This document shows positions 1-10,312 of a stretch of 64,000 nucleotides of DNA, piece after piece (positions within the stretch are counted from its first letter, which is position 1; the number at the start of each line of letters is the position of its first letter). The stretch lies in contig JBFRWN010000082.1 in NCBI GenBank assembly GCA_051439605.1, forward strand, positions 1 to 64,000. Reading direction: 5' to 3'. The translations under genes were made by a program, and so were the position numbers. This stretch comes from Synechococcus sp. GTDB lineage: Bacteria > Cyanobacteriota > Cyanobacteriia > Thermostichales > PCC-7336. Under the pieces are notes generated by a model, which was not told where the DNA came from, did not search any database, and was given only the letters and a program-made list of their open reading frames with translations.

Positions 1-199
1 CTGAAAGGCAACTGCGTTCATCGGTGCGGGTACTACTAAAGAGCAAGACATCTCAGCAAGCTATTGAGGGAGGACGGCTAGTAGCTCATAAGATTGATAA
101 CTACAGTTTCTATGAAAAACTAGGACTCCTCTATCAATATTGAGGGTGCAGCTCCACTCAGAACCTATATCGCGCAACCCAATCTGTCGATTGCCATCT

Positions 200-1888
200 A
201 TGCAAACCTGCTACTGCCTCAACCCAGACTGCCAGCAACCGCATAACGAGCACAATGCGTTATCATGTGCCGCTTGTGGCACAAAATTATTGTTGCGGGG
301 ACGCTATCGGGCTTACAAGCGTCTCGGCCAAGGTGGGTTTGGAACAACCTATTTGGCACGCGATCTGGACATGCCCTCCCAACCATGGAGAGCAATCAAG
401 CAGCTGCGGGTGGCTGAAGCCTCCGAGCAAGTTGCCCAACTCTCAAAAGAACTGTTTATGAGAGAGGCTCAAGTTCTGGAGAAGCTGGGAGAGCATTCCC
501 AGATTCCCACCCTTTACGCCTATTTCGGAGAAGATAACCGCTTCTATCTGGTACAGGAATTTGTCTTGGGAACCACCCTATCCAGCGAGATACATCGCAA
601 TGGGGTCATGAACGAAGAACAGGTGCATCGTATCCTCAAAGAGGTTCTGTTGATTCTGAGCTACGTCCACAGCAAAAACACCGTCCACCGAGACATTAAG
701 CCCGCCAACCTAATTCGTCGTAAAGATGACGATCGCCTCGTTTTAATCGACTTCGGCGCTGTGAAACAAATGGGAATTGCGGGGATGGAAGAAATGCCCT
801 CTTCTGTGACTGCGATTCGCTCTTTGGGTTTCTCGCCCCCCGAGCAAATGTCCGGCCACGCGGTTGGTCCAGCTAGCGACCTCTACGCCTTGGCGGCTAC
901 CTGTGTCAACCTCATGACCTGCAAATCCCCCAACCGCTTCTTCGATGCCAAACGGAATTGCTGGACCTGGCAAGATGCTGTGAGCCTCGACAATCGACTG
1001 GCCGAAATCATCGAACGGATGCTGCATCCCTCGATGTCTGAACGATACGAAAGTGCAACTGCCGTGTTAAGGGCATTGCAGGAATCCACGAGCAGCGGCG
1101 TTGGGGCAAGAGCCACCGTCCAATCCAGTAACACCACGTCCACCATTACTACCACGGCCGAGAGTAATCCCATTTCCCGTAACTGGTCTTACCGCAGCGG
1201 AGACACGGGGTTTCGACCCGTTTCTGCCTATCGTAAAGAACAGCCCACAGCCAGAACCGCATTGTCAACTAGCAGTACAGGATTTTCTAAAGTCAGCAGG
1301 CAAGACTTCGCCATTAAAACCGTTGCACGGGAAAATTCCTCATCTGGGTCTTCCTCGACATCTCTTTCCCTTTCTACAGCTGCCCCAGTGCCCTCTATGG
1401 AGGGGGCGGATTTGAGCAACCGAAATATGGCAAAAGAATGTTTAACAGGCTGTAATTTGCGCAAGTCTAATTTGGCTGGAACCAATTTATCGGGGGCCGA
1501 TCTACGGGGGGCCGATCTGCGGGGAGCGACTTTTACGGGACCAGCACCCAATTGGCAACTGATTCTAGTGCACTTGTTCTGGATGGGTCGAAACCTGTTG
1601 GGCATCATTATTGGGGTCCTATGCCTCGTTCTGGCTGCAGGAACGGCCGGTTGGGGAATTTATGCGCTCACCAGCAATCTGTTGCTGGGGGGAATAGGTG
1701 GATTGTTGGCAGCAATCTGTGCTGGCTGGTCCGTGTGGCAATTCACAGAGCGTCGTATCAGGTTGCCGATGACTCCCGGAGAGAGCCCACAGCGTTACAC
1801 ATTGCTGAGCGGTGCCGATCTTCGACAGGCACAAATGGATAGCCGCTTGCGACTGCATGCCAAACGGCAAGGGGCACGGCTGAGCTAG
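200..1888 (+). CDS. Ser/Thr protein kinase with N-terminal 4-Cys motif, pentapeptide repeats and C-terminal TM helices
   Basis: CxNPxC...CxxCG prefix; LGQGGFG, AIKQL, HRDIKPAN, DFG motifs; AxLxx pentapeptides; two hydrophobic helices. ATG at 200 preferred over TTG at 140. Confidence 0.9.
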   Translation: MQTCYCLNPDCQQPHNEHNALSCAACGTKLLLRGRYRAYKRLGQGGFGTTYLARDLDMPSQPWRAIKQLRVAEASEQVAQLSKELFMREAQVLEKLGEHSQIPTLYAYFGEDNRFYLVQEFVLGTTLSSEIHRNGVMNEEQVHRILKEVLLILSYVHSKNTVHRDIKPANLIRRKDDDRLVLIDFGAVKQMGIAGMEEMPSSVTAIRSLGFSPPEQMSGHAVGPASDLYALAATCVNLMTCKSPNRFFDAKRNCWTWQDAVSLDNRLAEIIERMLHPSMSERYESATAVLRALQESTSSGVGARATVQSSNTTSTITTTAESNPISRNWSYRSGDTGFRPVSAYRKEQPTARTALSTSSTGFSKVSRQDFAIKTVARENSSSGSSSTSLSLSTAAPVPSMEGADLSNRNMAKECLTGCNLRKSNLAGTNLSGADLRGADLRGATFTGPAPNWQLILVHLFWMGRNLLGIIIGVLCLVLAAGTAGWGIYALTSNLLLGGIGGLLAAICAGWSVWQFTERRIRLPMTPGESPQRYTLLSGADLRQAQMDSRLRLHAKRQGARLS

Positions 1889-1911
1889 TAGCTCTGCATA
1901 GTCACCCCCCA

Positions 1912-2730
1912 TTAACGACGTACAGGGATATGTTGCTGCATCAATGCTGTTTTGATGGTATCGATCGACAGTTGACCGAAATGAAGGAGGGAAGCAAGCA
2001 AAGCCGCCTCCGCCTTCCCTTCAGTCAGAGCCTCGCAAATGTGCTCGGTGTTGCCTGCACCACCAGAGGCAATTACAGGAATCTGAACGGCATCAGCCAC
2101 TCTGCGCGTTAGTTCTAGGTCATAACCCGCCTGTGTACCATCGGCGTCCATACTGGTCAGTAAAATTTCACCCGCTCCTCGCGATTCCATTTCTTTTGCC
2201 CAGGCGATTGCATCTAGCCCCGTAGCTTCACGCCCACCCCGGACGTAAACCTCCCAGCGATCGTCACGATGTCCGCCCCTCTCTCGCTCCGGACTACGGC
2301 GGGCATCAATTGCCACCACAATGCACTGCTGTCCAAACAAAGCGCTGGCATCGCTGACTAACTCTGGCGTATGCACCGCAGCAGAATTCATGCTAACTTT
2401 GTCCGCCCCGGCCCGCAGCAGATCGCGGATGTTATCAACCGTTCGTACGCCTCCCCCAACCGTTAGAGGAATAAACACCTGTTCTGCAGTCCGTTGCACG
2501 ACCTCGTAAATGATGCCTCGGTCTTCGTGGGTGGCCGTAATGTCTAAAAAAACGAGCTCGTCTGCCCCAGCTTCGTTGTAAGCCCGCGCTAGTTCCACCG
2601 GATCCCCGGCATCCACAAGATTGACGAAGTTAACGCCTTTAACAACACGCCCAGCATTAACGTCAAGGCAGGGAAGAATGCGTTTGGCAAGCACAGATTT
2701 CGGTTGAACACGGTTCTCCGAGTGTGCCAT
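1912..2730 (-). CDS. hisF: Imidazole glycerol phosphate synthase cyclase subunit
   Basis: [42 protein letters not shown] motifs. Confidence 0.97.
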
Positions 2731-2876
2731 ATTCTGCTAACGACTATTGCTGTTGCCATTTCAGTTAGGGCTGACATCTCTATGCTTTGTAAGGGATCGG
2801 GAGGGCTGAGATGTTCGATGACTCTCAAGAGCGTCTGACCCGCTGAGCATACAGAATTGATCGGTGAAATAACCTA

Positions 2877-2905
2877 TTGACGTTCCTGAATGGGGACACT
2901 AGCAT
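2877..2905 (+). promoter_or_regulatory. Putative sigma70-type promoter of the DAHP synthase leader
   Basis: TTGACG (2877-2882), 17 bp spacer, TAGCAT (2900-2905). Confidence 0.55.
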
Positions 2906-2974
2906 TAGGGTAAGTTAATATTAGGCAATCACTTTTCAGGGATTTGCCAAATCTACCAACCATTGACCCAGATT

Positions 2975-3025
2975 ATGTACAGAGTTCGATTTAACTTTTG
3001 GTTTACGGAGGCGCACCTGATGTAA
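2975..3025 (+). CDS. Putative attenuator leader peptide 1 (MYRVRFNFWFTEAHLM)
   Basis: 16-codon ORF read directly; 5 aromatic codons (Y,F,F,W,F); followed by antiterminator/terminator hairpins upstream of DAHP synthase. Confidence 0.7.
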   Translation: MYRVRFNFWFTEAHLM

Positions 3026-3052
3026 GTTGCTCTTATTTTGAGCGTTCAGGTG

Positions 3053-3086
3053 GCCCCCACAGTGCAATGTGAGGGGCTTTTGTTTT
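3053..3086 (+). terminator. Intrinsic terminator (attenuator 1)
   Basis: GCCCCCACA-gtgcaa-TGTG(A)GGGGC stem followed by TTTTGTTTT. Confidence 0.75.
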
Positions 3087-3134
3087 GCTTATCTAATGTT
3101 CTCGTTCGCTACTGTCTAGCTACCTTCAACTCCA

Positions 3135-3329
3135 ATGATTGTTAGTTCCTCCTTCGCCAATAACTGGGTTCAGTCGATCGCTAAGCGTTTCGACTGGGTT
3201 CAAACAGCAGTTGCGTACCAACCAATTAGCAACCTTAACGGTCTCACCACACCCGTCTGGAGGCACAGGCAAGTATTCGGACACCTCAGTAGCAATCCAT
3301 TTTTTAGCAGCTTTTTCTGGTTCGGATAG
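3135..3329 (+). CDS. Putative attenuator leader peptide 2 (64 aa, ends FFSSFFWFG)
   Basis: 13 of 64 codons aromatic, 6 of them in the last 9 codons; followed by a hairpin and T-run 57 nt before the DAHP synthase ATG. Confidence 0.55.
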   Translation: MIVSSSFANNWVQSIAKRFDWVQTAVAYQPISNLNGLTTPVWRHRQVFGHLSSNPFFSSFFWFG

Positions 3330-3368
3330 CCGTCCGGGTAGAGGAACGCGTATGTGCTCATCTTGCCC

Positions 3369-3395
3369 AGCCCCCAAGGTCCGGGCTTTTTTATT
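3369..3395 (+). terminator. Putative intrinsic terminator (attenuator 2)
   Basis: AGCCC-ccaaggtcc-GGGCT followed by TTTTTATT; short stem. Confidence 0.5.
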
Positions 3396-3449
3396 GCCTA
3401 TCTCGTCTATTGTTCTCCAATTCTTCAAGTCAACCATTTGGACAACCCC

Positions 3450-4346
3450 ATGAAAAATCTTAAACTTGCCAGTAAAGCCACTGTCAATCGACCTACCGTA
3501 GTACCCATCAGCAAAACAGTTGCCTTTGGTGGAAATGAGCTTGTGATAATCGGTGGCCCCTGTGCGGTTGAAAGCCAGCATCAGATGGAGGCTGTAGCCC
3601 AAGAGTTAGCCCCCTCTGCCATCAGCATGTTAAGAGGGGGAGCCTTCAAACCACGAACTTCCCCCTACAGCTTTCAAGGGCTAGGACAAGAGGGACTGGA
3701 GATTTTAGATGCAGTGGGTCATGAGTACGACCTACCGGTGGTGACAGAAGTCATGGCAGTCGAGCAATTACCAGCGGTTTGCCAACATGCGGACATGCTG
3801 CAAATTGGCAGCCGTAACATGCAAAACTTCGATTTACTGAAAGCGGTGGGTGGCACCCGTAAACCCACGATTCTTAAACGAGGTCTAGCAGCCACTCTAG
3901 AGGAGTTCGCGATGGCCGCCGAATACATCATGAGCAGCGGCAATCCTAACGTTGTGTTGTGCGAACGGGGCATTCGCAGTTTCGATTCTTACACCCGTAA
4001 CGTGCTCGATCTAGGGGCAGTTGTGGCCCTTAAACAACTCACTCACCTGCCAGTGATTGTCGATCCATCTCATGCCTCAGGAAAACGGGAGCTGGTTGCC
4101 GATCTTGCCCGAGCCGCGATCGCCTGTGGAGCCGATGGACTCATGATTGAGTGCCATCCTCAGCCGGAACAATCGGTTTCAGATGCTCGCCAAGCCCTGT
4201 CGTTGGAAGCCATGGTCAAATTGGGCGAAGACTTAAGACCGATTGCAGCAGCAGTGGGGCGCATCTTACCCAGTTCGCAGCTGCTATCGATGAATGCTTC
4301 TTGGAGGAAATCTTTATCTCCCGAGCAGACGGTGACGGTAGCATAG
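3450..4346 (+). CDS. aroF: 3-deoxy-7-phosphoheptulonate (DAHP) synthase, type I-beta, catalytic barrel only
   Basis: IIGGPCAVES, RGGAFKPRTSPYSFQG, LKRG, LCERGIR, VDPSHASG motifs; ATG at 3450. Confidence 0.93.
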   Translation: MKNLKLASKATVNRPTVVPISKTVAFGGNELVIIGGPCAVESQHQMEAVAQELAPSAISMLRGGAFKPRTSPYSFQGLGQEGLEILDAVGHEYDLPVVTEVMAVEQLPAVCQHADMLQIGSRNMQNFDLLKAVGGTRKPTILKRGLAATLEEFAMAAEYIMSSGNPNVVLCERGIRSFDSYTRNVLDLGAVVALKQLTHLPVIVDPSHASGKRELVADLARAAIACGADGLMIECHPQPEQSVSDARQALSLEAMVKLGEDLRPIAAAVGRILPSSQLLSMNASWRKSLSPEQTVTVA

Positions 4347-4564
4347 TTATGGGCTTAGATTTCCAATAAGCTCGCGGGCTTGCAGGAAGATATCGGCTTG
4401 ACAGCGAGGAAACGAGTCATAGACAACTGCATTACAACAATCTTCTGTGCCCGTTTTCTCTACTCTCCAATTCATGTAATGTGGTGCAAAGATCGCATTG
4501 CCAGCGATCGCGGCGTTTCGCCACAAACCAATCAGAGTGTTTTCGGCAGGAGGGTTAGGCAAAC

Positions 4565-5659
4565 GTGTCGCGATTTCTTTTTATTGGCTCCACAGCCGCC
4601 TATAGCGGTAAGTCCGCAGTCATCTTGGGGGTAGCCAGCTATCTTCAGCAGCACGGGTTAAACGTTGCTTACGGTAAGCCCCTGGGAGCCTGTATGGAGG
4701 GGGATTGTCTGGCAGACGGTACCGATCCGGATGTCGCCTTCATCGGAGATTGGTTGAAGCTTCCAGGGGACTGCCGCTTCCCGACAATTGCCCGCCTCGA
4801 TCCTGACACCGTCATGGCTGCAATTGATTCCTCAACCGAAATCGAATACTCTTGTAGACTCTCCGCGTACGAAAACGACTGTACGGCAGATATCAAATTA
4901 CTAGAAGGACCGGGAGATCTTCAGGAAGGGCAGTTGTTCCACCTTTCCCTCGCCGAAATGGCCAATCGCTTGGATGCTTCAATCCTTTTACTGGTGCGCT
5001 ACGGTTCCGCCGTAGTGGTCGACACAGTACTCGGAGCCCAACGGCTGCTGGGAGATCGCCTCATGGGGGTGATTCTGAACGATGTACCCACTGACGAGCT
5101 CGAAACCATTTCCGAACATGTAGTGCCCTATTTGGAGCATCACAAGATTCCTGTATTAGGAGTGTTGCCCACCAATCGGATCCTTCGCAGTATTAGCGTT
5201 AACGAGTTAGTGCATCAACTCGATGCCCAAGTGCTCTGTTGTGAAGATCGCCTCGATCTCCTCGTAGAGGAAATCACCATTGGTGCCATGAATGTCAATT
5301 CGGCGCTCAAATATTTCCGCAAGTCAGAGCATAAAGCAGTCATTACGGGCGGAGATCGAACAGATATTCAATTAGCAGCTCTCGAAACCTCCACCAACTG
5401 CCTGATCCTGACCGGACAACTGCCACCCACGGAATTAATACGCCTGAGGGCGGAGGAATTAGAAATTCCCATTTTGTCAGTCGCACTTGACACGTTAACC
5501 ACGGTGGAGCGGATCGAGCGGGTTTTAGGCCAAGTGCGATTGCACGAGGAAGTTAAGGTCCGTTGTATCGAAGATTTGATTGCTAACACTTTCGATTTCC
5601 CCCGTCTGTTTAGCCTCCTGCACTTGCCCCATCAGCCACCAAAAGTCAAGTCTGCATAA
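4565..5659 (+). CDS. Phosphotransacetylase N-terminal-like protein (BioD-like + DRTGG domains)
   Basis: SGKS P-loop, YGKPLG, GAM, ITGGDRTDIQLAALE. Confidence 0.88.
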   Translation: MSRFLFIGSTAAYSGKSAVILGVASYLQQHGLNVAYGKPLGACMEGDCLADGTDPDVAFIGDWLKLPGDCRFPTIARLDPDTVMAAIDSSTEIEYSCRLSAYENDCTADIKLLEGPGDLQEGQLFHLSLAEMANRLDASILLLVRYGSAVVVDTVLGAQRLLGDRLMGVILNDVPTDELETISEHVVPYLEHHKIPVLGVLPTNRILRSISVNELVHQLDAQVLCCEDRLDLLVEEITIGAMNVNSALKYFRKSEHKAVITGGDRTDIQLAALETSTNCLILTGQLPPTELIRLRAEELEIPILSVALDTLTTVERIERVLGQVRLHEEVKVRCIEDLIANTFDFPRLFSLLHLPHQPPKVKSA

Positions 5660-5852
5660 TTTTCCTGAAAACACTATATGTAGCGACTGTACTGATATTT
5701 TTCCGGCAAAATGCTCTACATTTATTGCTTGTTAGTCTAAATTTATTTGTTAGAAAATGATAATTGCGATCGCATTTCTAACCAGGGAAAAATACTTGTT
5801 CACTTATTTTTGAGACGATTGAGGTCCCCTTTTGGGATATCGAAGGATATAC

Positions 5853-5912
5853 TGAGGTTATTCATCACCTCAACACACCACTCCTCCCCCAGACCTGTCT
5901 GGGGGTTTTTTT
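5853..5912 (+). ncRNA. Candidate Yfr1-like small RNA (two hairpins with C/A-rich linker), includes intrinsic terminator
   Basis: TGAGGT/ACCTCA hairpin, ACACACCACTCCT linker, CCCCCAGA/TCTGGGGG stem and T7. Confidence 0.5.
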
Positions 5913-6139
5913 AGGGGTTTTGGTAGTAGCACAGTTGAATATTCGAAATTGATTTTAAAACACTGTATTTAGTGGGTGTGAGTTTCTTAAAGTTCCTTTT
6001 TGAATGCGCTGAATGTTTGTTCTGACAAGCATTTCTCGCACCTCTTAGAAGGTTGTAGACTCCGCAGAAATAGTAGGGGTCTATTGCAACCTCTACCCAG
6101 TGGATTTATGGTGTCTGGTGAGAAATAGGAGTTTTTGCG

Positions 6140-6586
6140 GTGGGAAACTGGAAAATCTATACAGATGGGGGCTGCTCCCCCAATCCTGGTCCTGGAGGTT
6201 GGGGCTACGTAGTGGTCGAAAATGGGGAGCCAGTCCATGAGTGCTTTGGCGGAGAACCCCACAGCACCAATAACCGCATGGAGCTAACTGCCATCATAGA
6301 AGCGTTGAACTATTGCCAGAAGAACGCTGAACAGTGGGGAAAAGTAACGATTTATTCTGATTCCAATTTGTGCGTTCAAACCTATAACACCTGGATGAGC
6401 GGCTGGGAAAAGCGGGGTTGGAAACGCTCTAAAGGCCCTGTGGTGAATCTAGACCTAGTCAAGCAATTGGCTGCCATGAAAAAGCGGTCCTCCAATATTC
6501 AATTGGTCTGGATCAAAGCCCATAACGGAGAGACCTGGAATGAATATGCCGATCGCCTCACCTATAAGGGACGACCTTCGGTGTGA
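6140..6586 (+). CDS. rnhA: Ribonuclease HI
   Basis: IYTDGGCSPNPGPGGWG, TNNRMEL, SDS, WIKAHNG..NEYAD. Confidence 0.95.
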   Translation: MGNWKIYTDGGCSPNPGPGGWGYVVVENGEPVHECFGGEPHSTNNRMELTAIIEALNYCQKNAEQWGKVTIYSDSNLCVQTYNTWMSGWEKRGWKRSKGPVVNLDLVKQLAAMKKRSSNIQLVWIKAHNGETWNEYADRLTYKGRPSV

Positions 6587-8163
6587 TGGTGTCTCAAGCT
6601 CGCAAGCCCCTACTACCTGGATGGCAACGCCGTCGGTGGAGAACTCGAGGGCTAGTTCTCTTGGCGATCGTGGCGACGGTCGTTGCAGCTCCTAATCGAA
6701 CTTTGCATTGGTATCCTGCCGCCTTCGTCTCACTTGCCCCCCTGTTTTACCTTTGCTGGAATCAGCCGTTTGGGAAACAACTGAAAATCTGTGCATCGAT
6801 CTGCTTCGGCTTCTGCCTGCTGGTTTTCTTGCCCGACCCTTGGGCAGTGGAAGCCCTTACTCAGGCTGAAATCATCGCGGGGCTCCTGGTTTCCCCCTTG
6901 GTTCCCCTCTATTTCACAATGGCAGCCCTGCTGAGCCTGTGGGTCAGTCGCCCATGCCCCACTTGGTTGCGCCCCTGCGCAATTGCCGCAGCATGGACTG
7001 GTTTTGACGGCTTGTTTGCCATTCTGCAAATTCCTCTGCCCCTCCATTTCGGGGCCTGCTTGTACGACGGGTTAACCGTCATTCAAATTGCAGATATTGC
7101 AGGTATTTGGGGGGTGACGTATTTCACCATTCTCACCAATGCTGCGGTTGCTGCAGGTTGGATCGCCTTTCCTCGCCGAGGTTGGTGGTTACCAGCTGTG
7201 GGGGTTGGCTTAGTTTGGCTCGCTATCCTCACCTATGGCTGGCAGCAGCTCTCGAGGTACGCGCCCACAAACTTAGAATTAGGCGGGGGAAACCCATTCA
7301 TTATTGGTACTGTCCAACAGGTGACTTGGCTGAAAACCGATCGCAGTTGGAACTATCGGACGGAGCGGTATCGCGAGCTAGAAACCTTTTCTAAAGCTGC
7401 ACTAGAAGAAGGGGCTCACCTATTAGTGTGGCCGGAAGGGGCAATGCGCGCCCAGTTAATCAACAGCGAGATCGAACGACTCTACCTGAAGCCACTTTTA
7501 CCATCATTACCTAATGGGGGAGGCTTGATTGTGGGCAGCAGCGAACTGGCAAATCCCAATGCCATAGGCGCCCCGTGGAACGAGCGCAAATTTATTAATG
7601 CCGCGCTGTTGTACACCCCAGATGGCACAGTGCGCGATCGTTACGGAAAACAATGGTTGTTTCAATATTTTGAGACCTCCCGTTTTGTTCCCTCCCAGGG
7701 GGGATATCGTCCATTGGATGCGGGCGATCGGCTGGGATTGTTGGGCACTCAAATTTGTTTGGAAAGCGTGATGCCGACTGCCTCCCGCCGCTTGGTGCAG
7801 AGGGGGGCCGAGTCGCTGATAGTCATCTCCGATGACAGTTGGTTCGGCAATAGTAATTGGCCACAACTACATAGCGTGCTATCGGTCTTTCGGGCTATCG
7901 AAAACCGCCGCAGCTTTGCCTTCGTCAACAATACGGGCGGAAATATTATTGCGCTGCCCTCTGGAGCGATCGTTGCCCAAGGTGCCATTTGGGAGCAGGG
8001 CCAAGTTTCCGGACCTATGTATCGAAATCGCACTCACACGTTCGCCAATCGGTATGGCGATTGGTTCGTATGGCTGTGTTTGGGAGGAACAACAGTCTCG
8101 TTTGGCTATTTTAAATTTGGCCATCCAACCCAAACAGCCAGACTTATCGCTGGAAACCTTTGA
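6583..8163 (+). CDS. lnt: Apolipoprotein N-acyltransferase
   Basis: N-terminal TM helices, IQIADIAGIWG, VWPEGA, ICLE, DDSWFG, RAIENRR nitrilase-fold motifs. Confidence 0.85.
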   Translation: MMVSQARKPLLPGWQRRRWRTRGLVLLAIVATVVAAPNRTLHWYPAAFVSLAPLFYLCWNQPFGKQLKICASICFGFCLLVFLPDPWAVEALTQAEIIAGLLVSPLVPLYFTMAALLSLWVSRPCPTWLRPCAIAAAWTGFDGLFAILQIPLPLHFGACLYDGLTVIQIADIAGIWGVTYFTILTNAAVAAGWIAFPRRGWWLPAVGVGLVWLAILTYGWQQLSRYAPTNLELGGGNPFIIGTVQQVTWLKTDRSWNYRTERYRELETFSKAALEEGAHLLVWPEGAMRAQLINSEIERLYLKPLLPSLPNGGGLIVGSSELANPNAIGAPWNERKFINAALLYTPDGTVRDRYGKQWLFQYFETSRFVPSQGGYRPLDAGDRLGLLGTQICLESVMPTASRRLVQRGAESLIVISDDSWFGNSNWPQLHSVLSVFRAIENRRSFAFVNNTGGNIIALPSGAIVAQGAIWEQGQVSGPMYRNRTHTFANRYGDWFVWLCLGGTTVSFGYFKFGHPTQTARLIAGNL

Positions 8164-8223
8164 CTCGTGCCCTCAAGACAGTTGAATTGGTACACAGATG
8201 GATTGGTACGCACCGTAACCCGA

Positions 8224-9135
8224 TTAGATGTCCACCCCGGAGGACTGACTGAGGGCAGAACCCACAATTTGAGTGCCGCTGCCTTCCTTCGTCAAAATCT
8301 CCAACAACATGGAGTGGGGATCTCCTCCATTCAGAATAGTTGCGGAGCCAACCCCCTGGGCCAACGCCCGAATACAGCACTGCACCTTGGGGATCATTCC
8401 TCCAGCTACTACCCCATCTTCAATCAGCTGGCGCGCCATTGGGATATCCATCTTCTCGATCAACGTTCCCGGATCGTCTTTATCCCGCAAAATGCCGGGG
8501 GTATCTGTCAACAAAATCAGTTTCTCAGCTCCTAAGGCTGCGGCCACTTCGCCAGCAACTGTGTCGGCATTGATGTTGTAAGCCTGACCGGTGTCGTCAG
8601 CCGCCACGCTGGAAATCACGGGAATATGGCGATCGCGAATCAGCGTCTTAAGCAGAGTAGGATCAGTGCCAATCACCTCACCCACAAAACCAATTTCCTC
8701 CCGACCCTGCGAGCGCGCCCGCACCAAATTGCCATCTCGGCCGCATAACCCAACTGCCGAGCCCCCAGCGAGATTAATCAATTGCACCAATTGCTTGTTT
8801 ACTCGACCGACCAATACCATCTCCACCACTTCCATGGTGTCGGCATCCGTTACCCGCAGGCCATCCACAAATTTGAAGGGAATCCCCAGCTTCTTGAGCC
8901 AGAGGTTAATTTCAGGTCCACCACCGTGAACGATCACCGGACAAATTCCGACACAGGATAGAAATACTGCATCCCTTAAAATTTCTGCACGCCTCTCCTC
9001 ATGAACCATGGCGGCCCCGCCATATTTGATCACAATCGTGCGCCCCTGGAATTTCTGAATGTAGGGGAGGGCCTCGCTGAGGATTTGCGCCCGACTGAGG
9101 GGGTCGCAGCGGAGGGTAGAAGAACGAACAATCAT
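8224..9135 (-). CDS. argB: Acetylglutamate kinase
   Basis: [45 protein letters not shown]; start uncertain. Confidence 0.96.
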
Positions 9136-9295
9136 GAGGGATTGGGGGCAGTAATCGAGACGACTATACCTCAAACTTGTTCCGTGTATAGGTTGGGATA
9201 TTCCGGCTGCCAGTCTGACTCATTCGATGAAACCTGTTGGGGTCTTTCCCAATTCAATCGAATCGGTATGGCAAACGTTCGCTGGTATTGAAAAC

Positions 9296-10312
9296 TTAAG
9301 AGCTGGGTCGATCCAACTCTGTGGAGCTAACCAAACTTTCAGGAATGCGCTCCTCTAAGTCCACTGGAATCACATCGTTGAAGTTTGTGTAGTTCACCAC
9401 CCGACGACCATCGGGCCGGGTAGAAAAAATATCTACAAAGCGGTGGTTCCAAAAAATTTCTTGGGGTAGATAGGAGTGGCGAGCATGAATGGTTTGTGAG
9501 AAAGTTTCGTCCAAACCGGTCATGGTGGCGATCGCCTCCCCCTGCATGTTCATAAACTCCTGGGCGGTCATGCCGTATAAGGGGCTGGAGCGATCGATGG
9601 GATGCATGACTGTCCAGGTGAGGGCAAAAATTGGCGTCTGGGATCTGAGTAACCGCAAATTGTGAAAGCGGTACATTTCTTGCCCCTCATAACTCACCTC
9701 TCTCCGCAGAAGAGACAGTATAATTTGTCCCTCTAAAATTTGATTGCGTCGCAAGTTGCGAATGCGGAACATCAGGGTGGGTATACCGTTGTAACTAGAA
9801 ATCGTTGCTACATCGCTAAACACCACCCGAGCGGTGGGTCGGGATACGCGCGCAAATACTACACCGGTTACGGTCGCCAGCCCCAGCAACCCCACCAAAG
9901 ACTCAAAAGTTACCACCATATCGATGTAGAAGGACGTGGGGTGCATCGCCCCATATCCAAGGGATGCCATTGTTTGCACGCTAAAGAAAAAGGCATCCCA
10001 AAACGACCCAGGGGTAGCATTTGCAATTCCCTCGGAATCGAAAAGATAGAGCAGGGCGAACACACCGTTAGCTACGAGGTAGAGCAGAAACGTCAGAGCG
10101 AAAAACCCCGACCAAGGGATCGTCATCAAGACGTGATACAGATCGCCCCAAGGGGAACGATCGTCCCCAATGCGTATAACGTTGGGTAGACCGTTGCGAG
10201 TAATCACTCGATTCTCGAAGCAAGGGCTCTTCGGATTCTTCCAACGGCTTAAGCGGAAGCGAAAGCGTTGCAAGATTCGGCTCGAAAGCTCTAATACAGG
10301 CTGAATGCTCAT
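9296..10312 (-). CDS. Inward-rectifier potassium channel (KirBac-like)
   Basis: DAFFFSVQTMASLGYG pore, FARVSRPTARVVFS, PTLMFRI, WTVMHPID. Confidence 0.92.
   Translation of the reverse strand: MSIQPVLELSSRILQRFRFRLSRWKNPKSPCFENRVITRNGLPNVIRIGDDRSPWGDLYHVLMTIPWSGFFALTFLLYLVANGVFALLYLFDSEGIANATPGSFWDAFFFSVQTMASLGYGAMHPTSFYIDMVVTFESLVGLLGLATVTGVVFARVSRPTARVVFSDVATISSYNGIPTLMFRIRNLRRNQILEGQIILSLLRREVSYEGQEMYRFHNLRLLRSQTPIFALTWTVMHPIDRSSPLYGMTAQEFMNMQGEAIATMTGLDETFSQTIHARHSYLPQEIFWNHRFVDIFSTRPDGRRVVNYTNFNDVIPVDLEERIPESLVSSTELDRPSS

Follow-up and report, generated by a model that had tools for sequence, protein, structure and literature searches.

Two conserved aromatic-codon leader modules in series precede a short cyanobacterial DAHP synthase gene and are likely serial transcription attenuators

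Leader peptides rich in aromatic codons have been described before genes of aromatic amino acid synthesis in several bacteria, and we summarise these systems from the portions of the cited papers that were available. In Corynebacterium glutamicum, aroF is subject to cognate-codon attenuation at aroR-aroF (Neshat et al., 2014, via PMC11802643 and PMC4046766), where aromatic leader codons (Phe-Tyr-Phe) control a DAHP synthase gene via ribosome stalling. In Acholeplasma, an aroF/DAHP synthase gene is preceded by a predicted upstream ORF that has Phe codons, together with an intrinsic terminator (uORFC-13-1; PMC8632094), and in Escherichia coli trpL and pheL cognate codons in a short leader ORF are combined with a mutually exclusive antiterminator and U-tailed terminator (PMC11802643, PMC3641672). 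Leaders in series are also on record: Salmonella mgtCBR carries two leader ORFs, mgtM and mgtP, in one leader, each of which works via alternative stem-loops (PMC3641672). Precedents exist, then, for tandem leaders as well as for single aroF leaders (Corynebacterium, Acholeplasma), and the Salmonella case amends an earlier sequence-only reading of the locus described here, which knew of no two such leaders in series. For cyanobacteria, a 2016 survey states, in its available text, that reliable data for attenuation are lacking (PMC4833913). The same reading knew of no established cyanobacterial example, and this stands: no published case of such leaders was found in the literature searched, most subscription papers and bioRxiv supplements being outside its reach, and this element is not mentioned in the available portions of PMC2965389, PMC7693272 and PMC13613805 (the last including three supplements).

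Here we analysed a 64,000-nucleotide stretch of Synechococcus sp. DNA (the window) in which the gene for a short DAHP synthase is preceded by two leader modules. The promoter, two upstream ORFs, two hairpins with T-runs and DAHP synthase start at 3450 that the sequence-only reading had proposed were all found in place (Table 1), as were the aromatic runs of both ORFs, F-N-F-W-F in the first and FFSSFFWFG in the second. The arrangement has the features of an attenuator: end-product codons in a leader ORF, a terminator before the gene, and an overlapping antiterminator with an arm that could be covered by a ribosome at the stop codon. On comparative sequence evidence and RNA folding models, we consider it very likely that the two modules are ribosome-dependent transcription attenuators in series, sensing the supply of aromatic aminoacyl-tRNA and allowing transcription of the gene only when it is scarce.

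Table 1. Features of the DAHP synthase leader region (positions in the window)
Feature	Position	Strand	Details
hisF, divergent upstream neighbour	1912-2730	-	starts 147 nt from the -35 box
Promoter, sigma70-type	2877-2905	+	sequence pattern; -35 TTGACG, N17, -10 TAGCAT
Leader ORF 1 (uORF1), 16 aa	2975-3025	+	sensing codons F6, F8, W9 (2999-3001) and F10 (F-N-F-W-F)
Antiterminator 1	3010-3055	+	arm 3010-3020 (within leader ORF 1) pairs with 3046-3055 and encloses hairpin 3028-3044
Intrinsic terminator 1	3052-3086	+	stem 3052-3078, T-run to 3086; 3052-3055 common to antiterminator 1
Leader ORF 2 (uORF2), 64 aa	3135-3329	+	C-terminal FFSSFFWFG; sensing codons 3300-3323 (F F S S F F W F); stop TAG 3327-3329
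Antiterminator 2	3333-3370	+	arm 3333-3342 pairs with ~3361-3370
Intrinsic terminator 2	3365-3392	+	stem 3365-3386, T-run 3387-3392
Short type Iβ DAHP synthase, 298 aa	3450-4346	+	TIGR01361, PF00793

Taken alone, the promoter pattern TTGACG-N17-TAGCAT occurs about as often as chance would allow (2 sites against an expected 0.9), and the transcription start at ~2912 is a prediction. The same pattern lies at most 160 nt 5′ of the first leader at 83/88 module-bearing short-form loci vs. 0/64 same-size control windows at long-form loci, and an internal promoter pattern was found at 2/79 loci. Because both hairpins carry bulges, a simple terminator scan missed them; inspection of the sequence revealed no obvious Shine-Dalgarno sequence at either leader in the window. 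In a single RNA run (X15), one 214-nt contig covers 3280-3492, and since strand, ends and RNA nature are not readable from a contig we did not count it as transcription. The hisF neighbour also stands at locus L003, with no wider conservation seen by eye. Sequencing runs that contain window DNA are mostly labelled marine sediment, and the genome encodes peptides that we take to be PsbK and PetN, consistent with an oxygenic cyanobacterium.

The sequence-only reading described the two upstream ORFs as unrelated apart from F-W-F, and the two modules show no detectable sequence relation, the profiles cross-matching at only 1/95 loci (12 bits); an origin of one module as a duplicate of the other is thus unsupported. 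Known families did not account for either module. No Rfam leader family was found for positions 1-10000 of the window at E≤5 or for six related loci at E≤2, NCBIfam gave 0 matches for the 64-aa leader and one unrelated sub-threshold match for 14 related leaders (the scan covering leaders of at least 20 aa), and an exact look-up of 7 leader peptides among ~15 billion proteins returned no match.

Loci were drawn from 41 relatives, from 401 genomes of the phylum and 121 of the class, and from two contig scans; a profile of the N-terminal domain separated short from long DAHP synthase forms. A short gene at ≥63% identity was present in 64/401 genomes of the phylum sample, the window's own genome included (G000). 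Excluded before counting were seven loci with identical upstream DNA, seven with <300 nt upstream (one short, six long), three short partial genes without a 5′ end and seven distant or partial homologues. The module detector required an ORF 8-70 codons long in which a stretch of 8 codons holds 4 or more aromatics, followed by a hairpin of ≤-7 kcal/mol with a T-run; two DNA profiles were run alongside it on all loci. The comparison of orthologous upstream regions that the sequence-only reading had proposed bore it out, with conserved aromatic-rich upstream ORFs and covarying stems (see below): both modules were present at 80/95 short-form loci (the detector found 78, and the profiles supplied the missing module at L083 and L093), a figure that includes many close kin and is partly by construction, since detector thresholds and profiles were fixed after the first loci had been seen, which does not apply to the controls. 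Of the remaining short-form loci, 5/95 carried module 1 only, 3/95 module 2 only and 7/95 none. By our own group assignment, both modules occurred at 72/77 oxygenic-cyanobacterial and 8/18 Melainabacteria-type loci; of the 18 coded families in the set, 15 contain both. Long-form DAHP synthase loci gave 0/66 with two modules, 3/66 with one unrelated detector match and no profile match.

The same detector was run on 3245 upstream windows of the genome, 3190 of which had no match, 54 one and a single one two, this being the window's DAHP synthase gene. Most of the 54 single matches are probably chance, and none stands before an obvious aromatic-pathway gene; they include matches 5′ of ORFs at G000:C68 (minus, offset 40644) and G000:C108 (minus, offset 6446). 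Such single matches could speak for chance features of a U-rich spacer, or for control at the initiation of DAHP synthase translation, but double modules at 1/3245 genes vs. 80/95 orthologues, together with the distance from the start of the last T-run to the start codon (22-221 nt, with a median of 46), make either explanation barely credible. Here the last T-run starts 63 nt before the start codon, and therefore the hairpin leaves the start codon uncovered.

In a quick tree (with long-branch warnings and an unreliable root), the seven short genes without modules group as one clade (support 98) that lies among Melainabacteria genes with modules, consistent with a single loss of the modules in that clade; two of the seven loci, L042 and L101, encode an identical protein. 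The same tree, its root again unreliable, places Melainabacteria short genes among those of oxygenic cyanobacteria, and this placement might reflect transfer with the leaders attached. At two Melainabacteria loci (L030:2453-2854 and L039:1581-2033), the close 3′ gene of DAHP synthase encodes a chorismate mutase (PF01817) or type II dehydroquinase (PF01220), and the leaders there may control small aro operons; no conserved gene was found downstream of DAHP synthase at cyanobacterial loci. Individual leaders also deviate from the common form. L034, L035 and L038 have a 48-aa leader 2 and a divergent module-2 RNA found by the detector and missed by the profile, while the frame of leader 2 at L144 is shifted over the arm with the RNA motif kept.

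For each module, we took 39 diverse sequences and counted the 10 codons that precede the antiterminator arm (390 codons). In module 1, the aromatic fraction was 0.60 for the ORF's own frame, against 0.20 and 0.16 for the two others, and in module 2 it was 49% in frame, with 16-21% out of frame across both modules. Among T-starting codons, 233/249 in module 1 and 192/204 in module 2 were Phe, Tyr or Trp, with TTA and TTG used 1 and 0 times, and therefore selection acts on the amino-acid class and not on U-richness. The position of the codons is also fixed: in module 1 the last Trp codon ends 8 nt before the arm in 32/37 sequences, and in module 2 the distance is 12 nt in 28/32. Codon make-up is similar in both modules (F114/Y79/W40 vs. 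F100/Y59/W33, of 390 codons), and therefore the two gates appear to serve a single signal.

Phe, Tyr and Trp codons are all U-starting, the runs are very U-rich, and U-starting codons have a tRNA modification in common. Leaders that sense general ribosome speed on such codons (e.g. through tRNA A37 modification or UTP-coupled pausing), and not aromatic aminoacyl-tRNA, would suit these facts, as well as the link between MiaA and Trp attenuation in Pseudomonas given in the available text of PMC13434334. We nevertheless regard this as improbable, because U-starting codons for non-aromatic residues (Leu TTA/TTG, Cys, Ser TCN) are underrepresented (16/249 and 11/204, plus one stop), the aromatic enrichment is frame-specific, and the regulated gene makes aromatic precursors.

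The aromatic codons of the leaders differ among lineages. All three of Phe, Tyr and Trp are used at 72/88 loci, Phe/Trp-only leaders occur in 4/4 members of the window's genus (with at most one Tyr) and in a few others, and the leaders of L036, L050 and L069 (Melainabacteria, Obscuribacterales) have 8-11 Tyr and no Trp. The last three contain up to seven consecutive Tyr codons, and their genome (G515) has four PF00793 genes. The Phe/Trp set put forward by the sequence-only reading therefore holds for this genus and a few others, and the family as a whole is pan-aromatic. The reading's further proposal of two serial gates is supported with amendments: conservation, the excess of aromatic codons in frame, their constant distance from the helix and the covarying pairs of the two switches speak for ribosome-dependent attenuation in series, though not with one gate for Phe and another for Trp.

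Outside the aromatic run, the peptides are not conserved. Leader 1 orthologues are 13-20 aa long (65 anchored loci) and those of leader 2 mostly 20-21 aa, the 64 aa of the window being the longest of 80. A conserved 64-aa small protein is ruled out for leader 2, as its N-terminal part differs among the four genus members and 7/7 strain differences within it are non-synonymous. A main function in trans, with leader RNAs or hydrophobic peptides acting elsewhere like rnTrpL and peTrpL, attenuator products with trans roles in Sinorhizobium (PMC6614838, PMC7298713, available text), would find a source in two strong terminators, which would yield abundant short RNAs. It is very improbable here given peptides of 17-64 aa in which only the aromatic class is kept, which have no family or database match, and whose genes carry covarying antiterminators that are needed only in cis.

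Helices were examined both in the window and across the family. In the window, antiterminator 1 (-20.1 kcal/mol, z -3.4) and terminator 1 (-17.1 kcal/mol, z -2.8) were followed by a second pair that folds no better than shuffles, with values of -12.1 kcal/mol and z -0.3 for antiterminator 2 and -9.3 kcal/mol and z -1.1 for terminator 2, which by the detector's own figure (-8.1 vs. a median of -16.7) is the second weakest of 80. Family-wide pair counts were made on MAFFT alignments of 39 sequences, with 20 module-1 and one module-2 sequences that lack the anchor motif left out. Antiterminator 1 was paired in 92% of cells, with two-sided changes in 7/11 pairs, and terminator 1 in 96% (7/8 pairs); antiterminator 2 was paired in 92%, with two-sided changes in 2/8 pairs (10 cells vs. 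2.8 in shuffles), and terminator 2 in 92% (6/9 pairs). All four helices beat 500/500 shuffles and all slid controls in covariation score, the shuffles ignoring relatedness among loci that include close kin. The number of covarying pairs in antiterminator 2 was no greater than in shuffles (307/500), and a candidate 1:2 pause/protector helix in module 2 was weak, with 69% of cells paired and a score reached by 6/500 shuffles.

In our folding model, the 5′ arm of the terminator is predicted to be sequestered with a ribosome stalled at the last Trp codon and free with a ribosome at the stop codon in 30/39 sequences of module 1 and 32/39 of module 2. At equilibrium, with full-length RNA, the family's terminator 2 still prevails in the stalled state (median 0.88), and terminator 1 of the window keeps 0.81 in that state when followed to 3090; the switch would therefore need co-transcriptional (kinetic) trapping.

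Under serial attenuation, RNA polymerase would start at ~2912 and a ribosome would translate leader 1. If charged tRNA-Phe and tRNA-Trp are plentiful, the ribosome would reach the stop codon and cover arm 3010-3020, and terminator 1 would form, leaving an RNA of ~170 nt; if it stalls at F-N-F-W-F for want of these tRNAs, arm 3010-3020 would be free to pair with 3046-3055, and terminator 1 would be blocked. A transcript that survives would meet the same test at leader 2, with its sensing codons at 3300-3323, arm 3333-3342 and terminator 3365-3392. Read-through would then be the product of two probabilities, and such multiplicative gating would reduce basal expression and sharpen the response to a single signal.

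The second gate of this strain departs from the usual form. Its genus relatives read F-W-F-G-x-x-S-G-stop, and the window stops after F-W-F-G, so that the stop at 3327-3329 comes four codons early (the stop of the relatives corresponds to 3339-3341). We compared eight sequencing runs at 3327 and 3369, of which X3 and X7 cover neither site. At 3327, T was read only in X1 (the likely source run, depth 36, and not independent), and the 3/3 other covering runs (X4, X6 and X15, two studies) read C, which gives a sense codon. At 3369, G was read in X4, X6, X15 and X5 (near a contig end, at low depth), which restores the stem, and A in X1 and X2; the mismatch weakens terminator 2 of the window to -9.3 vs. 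-15.3 kcal/mol for the X4/X6 allele. That the early stop is an assembly error is not established as certain, given its depth in X1 and the recurrence of the stem mismatch in X2. Near strains thus keep the usual gate-2 alleles and the window's version, with its 64-codon leader, early stop and weakened stem, is atypical; a ribosome must also enter leader 2 55 codons before the sensing run.

For this strain, it is conceivable, though we think it rather unlikely, that only gate 1 works, with gate 2 decayed to a leaky remnant and the locus in effect a single attenuator, which would be compatible with our reading of the family. The early stop and the stem mismatch both favour read-through, the second leader has the exceptional length and the terminator the reduced stability noted above, and with a ribosome at the stop codon termination is predicted at 0.0-0.14 if the first free base lies 7-8 nt after the stop. 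However, if the first free base lies at least 10 nt after the stop, the predicted values are 0.95-0.98 vs. 0.0-0.1 in the stalled state, i.e. those of a working switch; moreover, the aromatic run of leader 2 is intact in every run that covers it, and leader 1 of L074 and L133 likewise stops early, just past its aromatic run, while keeping the RNA motif. Gate 2 in this strain is therefore either leaky or a lower-threshold switch, and read-through at it is predicted to be more frequent than at gate 2 of near strains.

The 298-aa enzyme scores 358 bits against TIGR01361, over the cut-off, and contains PF00793. PF18152, the N-terminal ferredoxin-like regulatory domain, is absent from it and present in the long paralogue of genome G002; the enzyme is a catalytic barrel with neither an N-terminal ferredoxin-like nor a chorismate-mutase domain, and its best PDB sequence match is 1vs1 (276 aa, E 2e-83). 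Because the regulatory domain is absent and unadorned type Iβ enzymes, e.g. that of P. furiosus, are unregulated (PMC6435475, available text), the short enzyme is likely free of feedback inhibition by Phe, Tyr and Trp. It is not the genome's sole DAHP synthase, a possibility ruled out by a type Iα gene on contig C76 (C76:37831-38718; L186:475-1548, minus) that scores over the cut-off of TIGR00034; the detector found no leader module at this gene, and no type II DAHP synthase gene was found. In 5/5 other genomes checked in which only the short gene had come up at first (G001, G003, G031, G036 and G078), a second PF00793 gene of similar score likewise stands beside the short Iβ gene. An isozyme without an allosteric domain would be controlled by its amount and not by feedback, and could act as a booster beside a housekeeping isozyme, here the type Iα enzyme.

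If confirmed, the locus would allow transcription-translation coupling to be tested in a native cyanobacterial setting, and it would be a natural example of allostery replaced by genetic control, the short enzyme having leaders and the long enzyme none. The leader region could also serve as a compact sensor of aromatic amino acids, and the enzyme, likely free of feedback, could be used to engineer aromatics in cyanobacteria. The locus itself contributes two natural gate-2 alleles within one species, which bear on the contribution of the second gate, and a divergent variant, from a Phe/Trp-only genus, that occurs together with a type Iα isozyme.

Compared with the systems described at the outset, again as far as the available text of the papers goes, the locus differs as follows. 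The aroR-aroF system of C. glutamicum has one leader with three sensing codons and belongs to the Actinobacteria; here two unrelated modules stand in series in Cyanobacteriota, each with 3-7 aromatic codons including Trp. Acholeplasma uORFC-13-1 is a single module with 24 representatives in one genus and environmental sequences (PMC8632094). E. coli trpL and pheL are single gates for one amino acid at terminal-branch operons, and their 1:2 pause/protector hairpin is weakly supported here. Salmonella mgtCBR, the precedent for tandem leaders, reads two different signals (ATP and proline) additively, without intrinsic terminators and at non-biosynthetic genes (PMC3641672), whereas both modules here use the same codon class, both have intrinsic terminators, and the target is the enzyme of the cognate pathway. 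We lean towards the view, with some reservation, that this is the first ribosome-dependent amino-acid attenuation in Cyanobacteriota, in the form of two serial intrinsic-terminator gates that would read the same aromatic signal and replace the missing allosteric domain of the enzyme, with lineages retuning it by codon swaps (to Phe/Trp in the present genus, to Tyr in part of the Obscuribacterales and to all three in most) and with the stringency of gate 2 varying among strains of one species.
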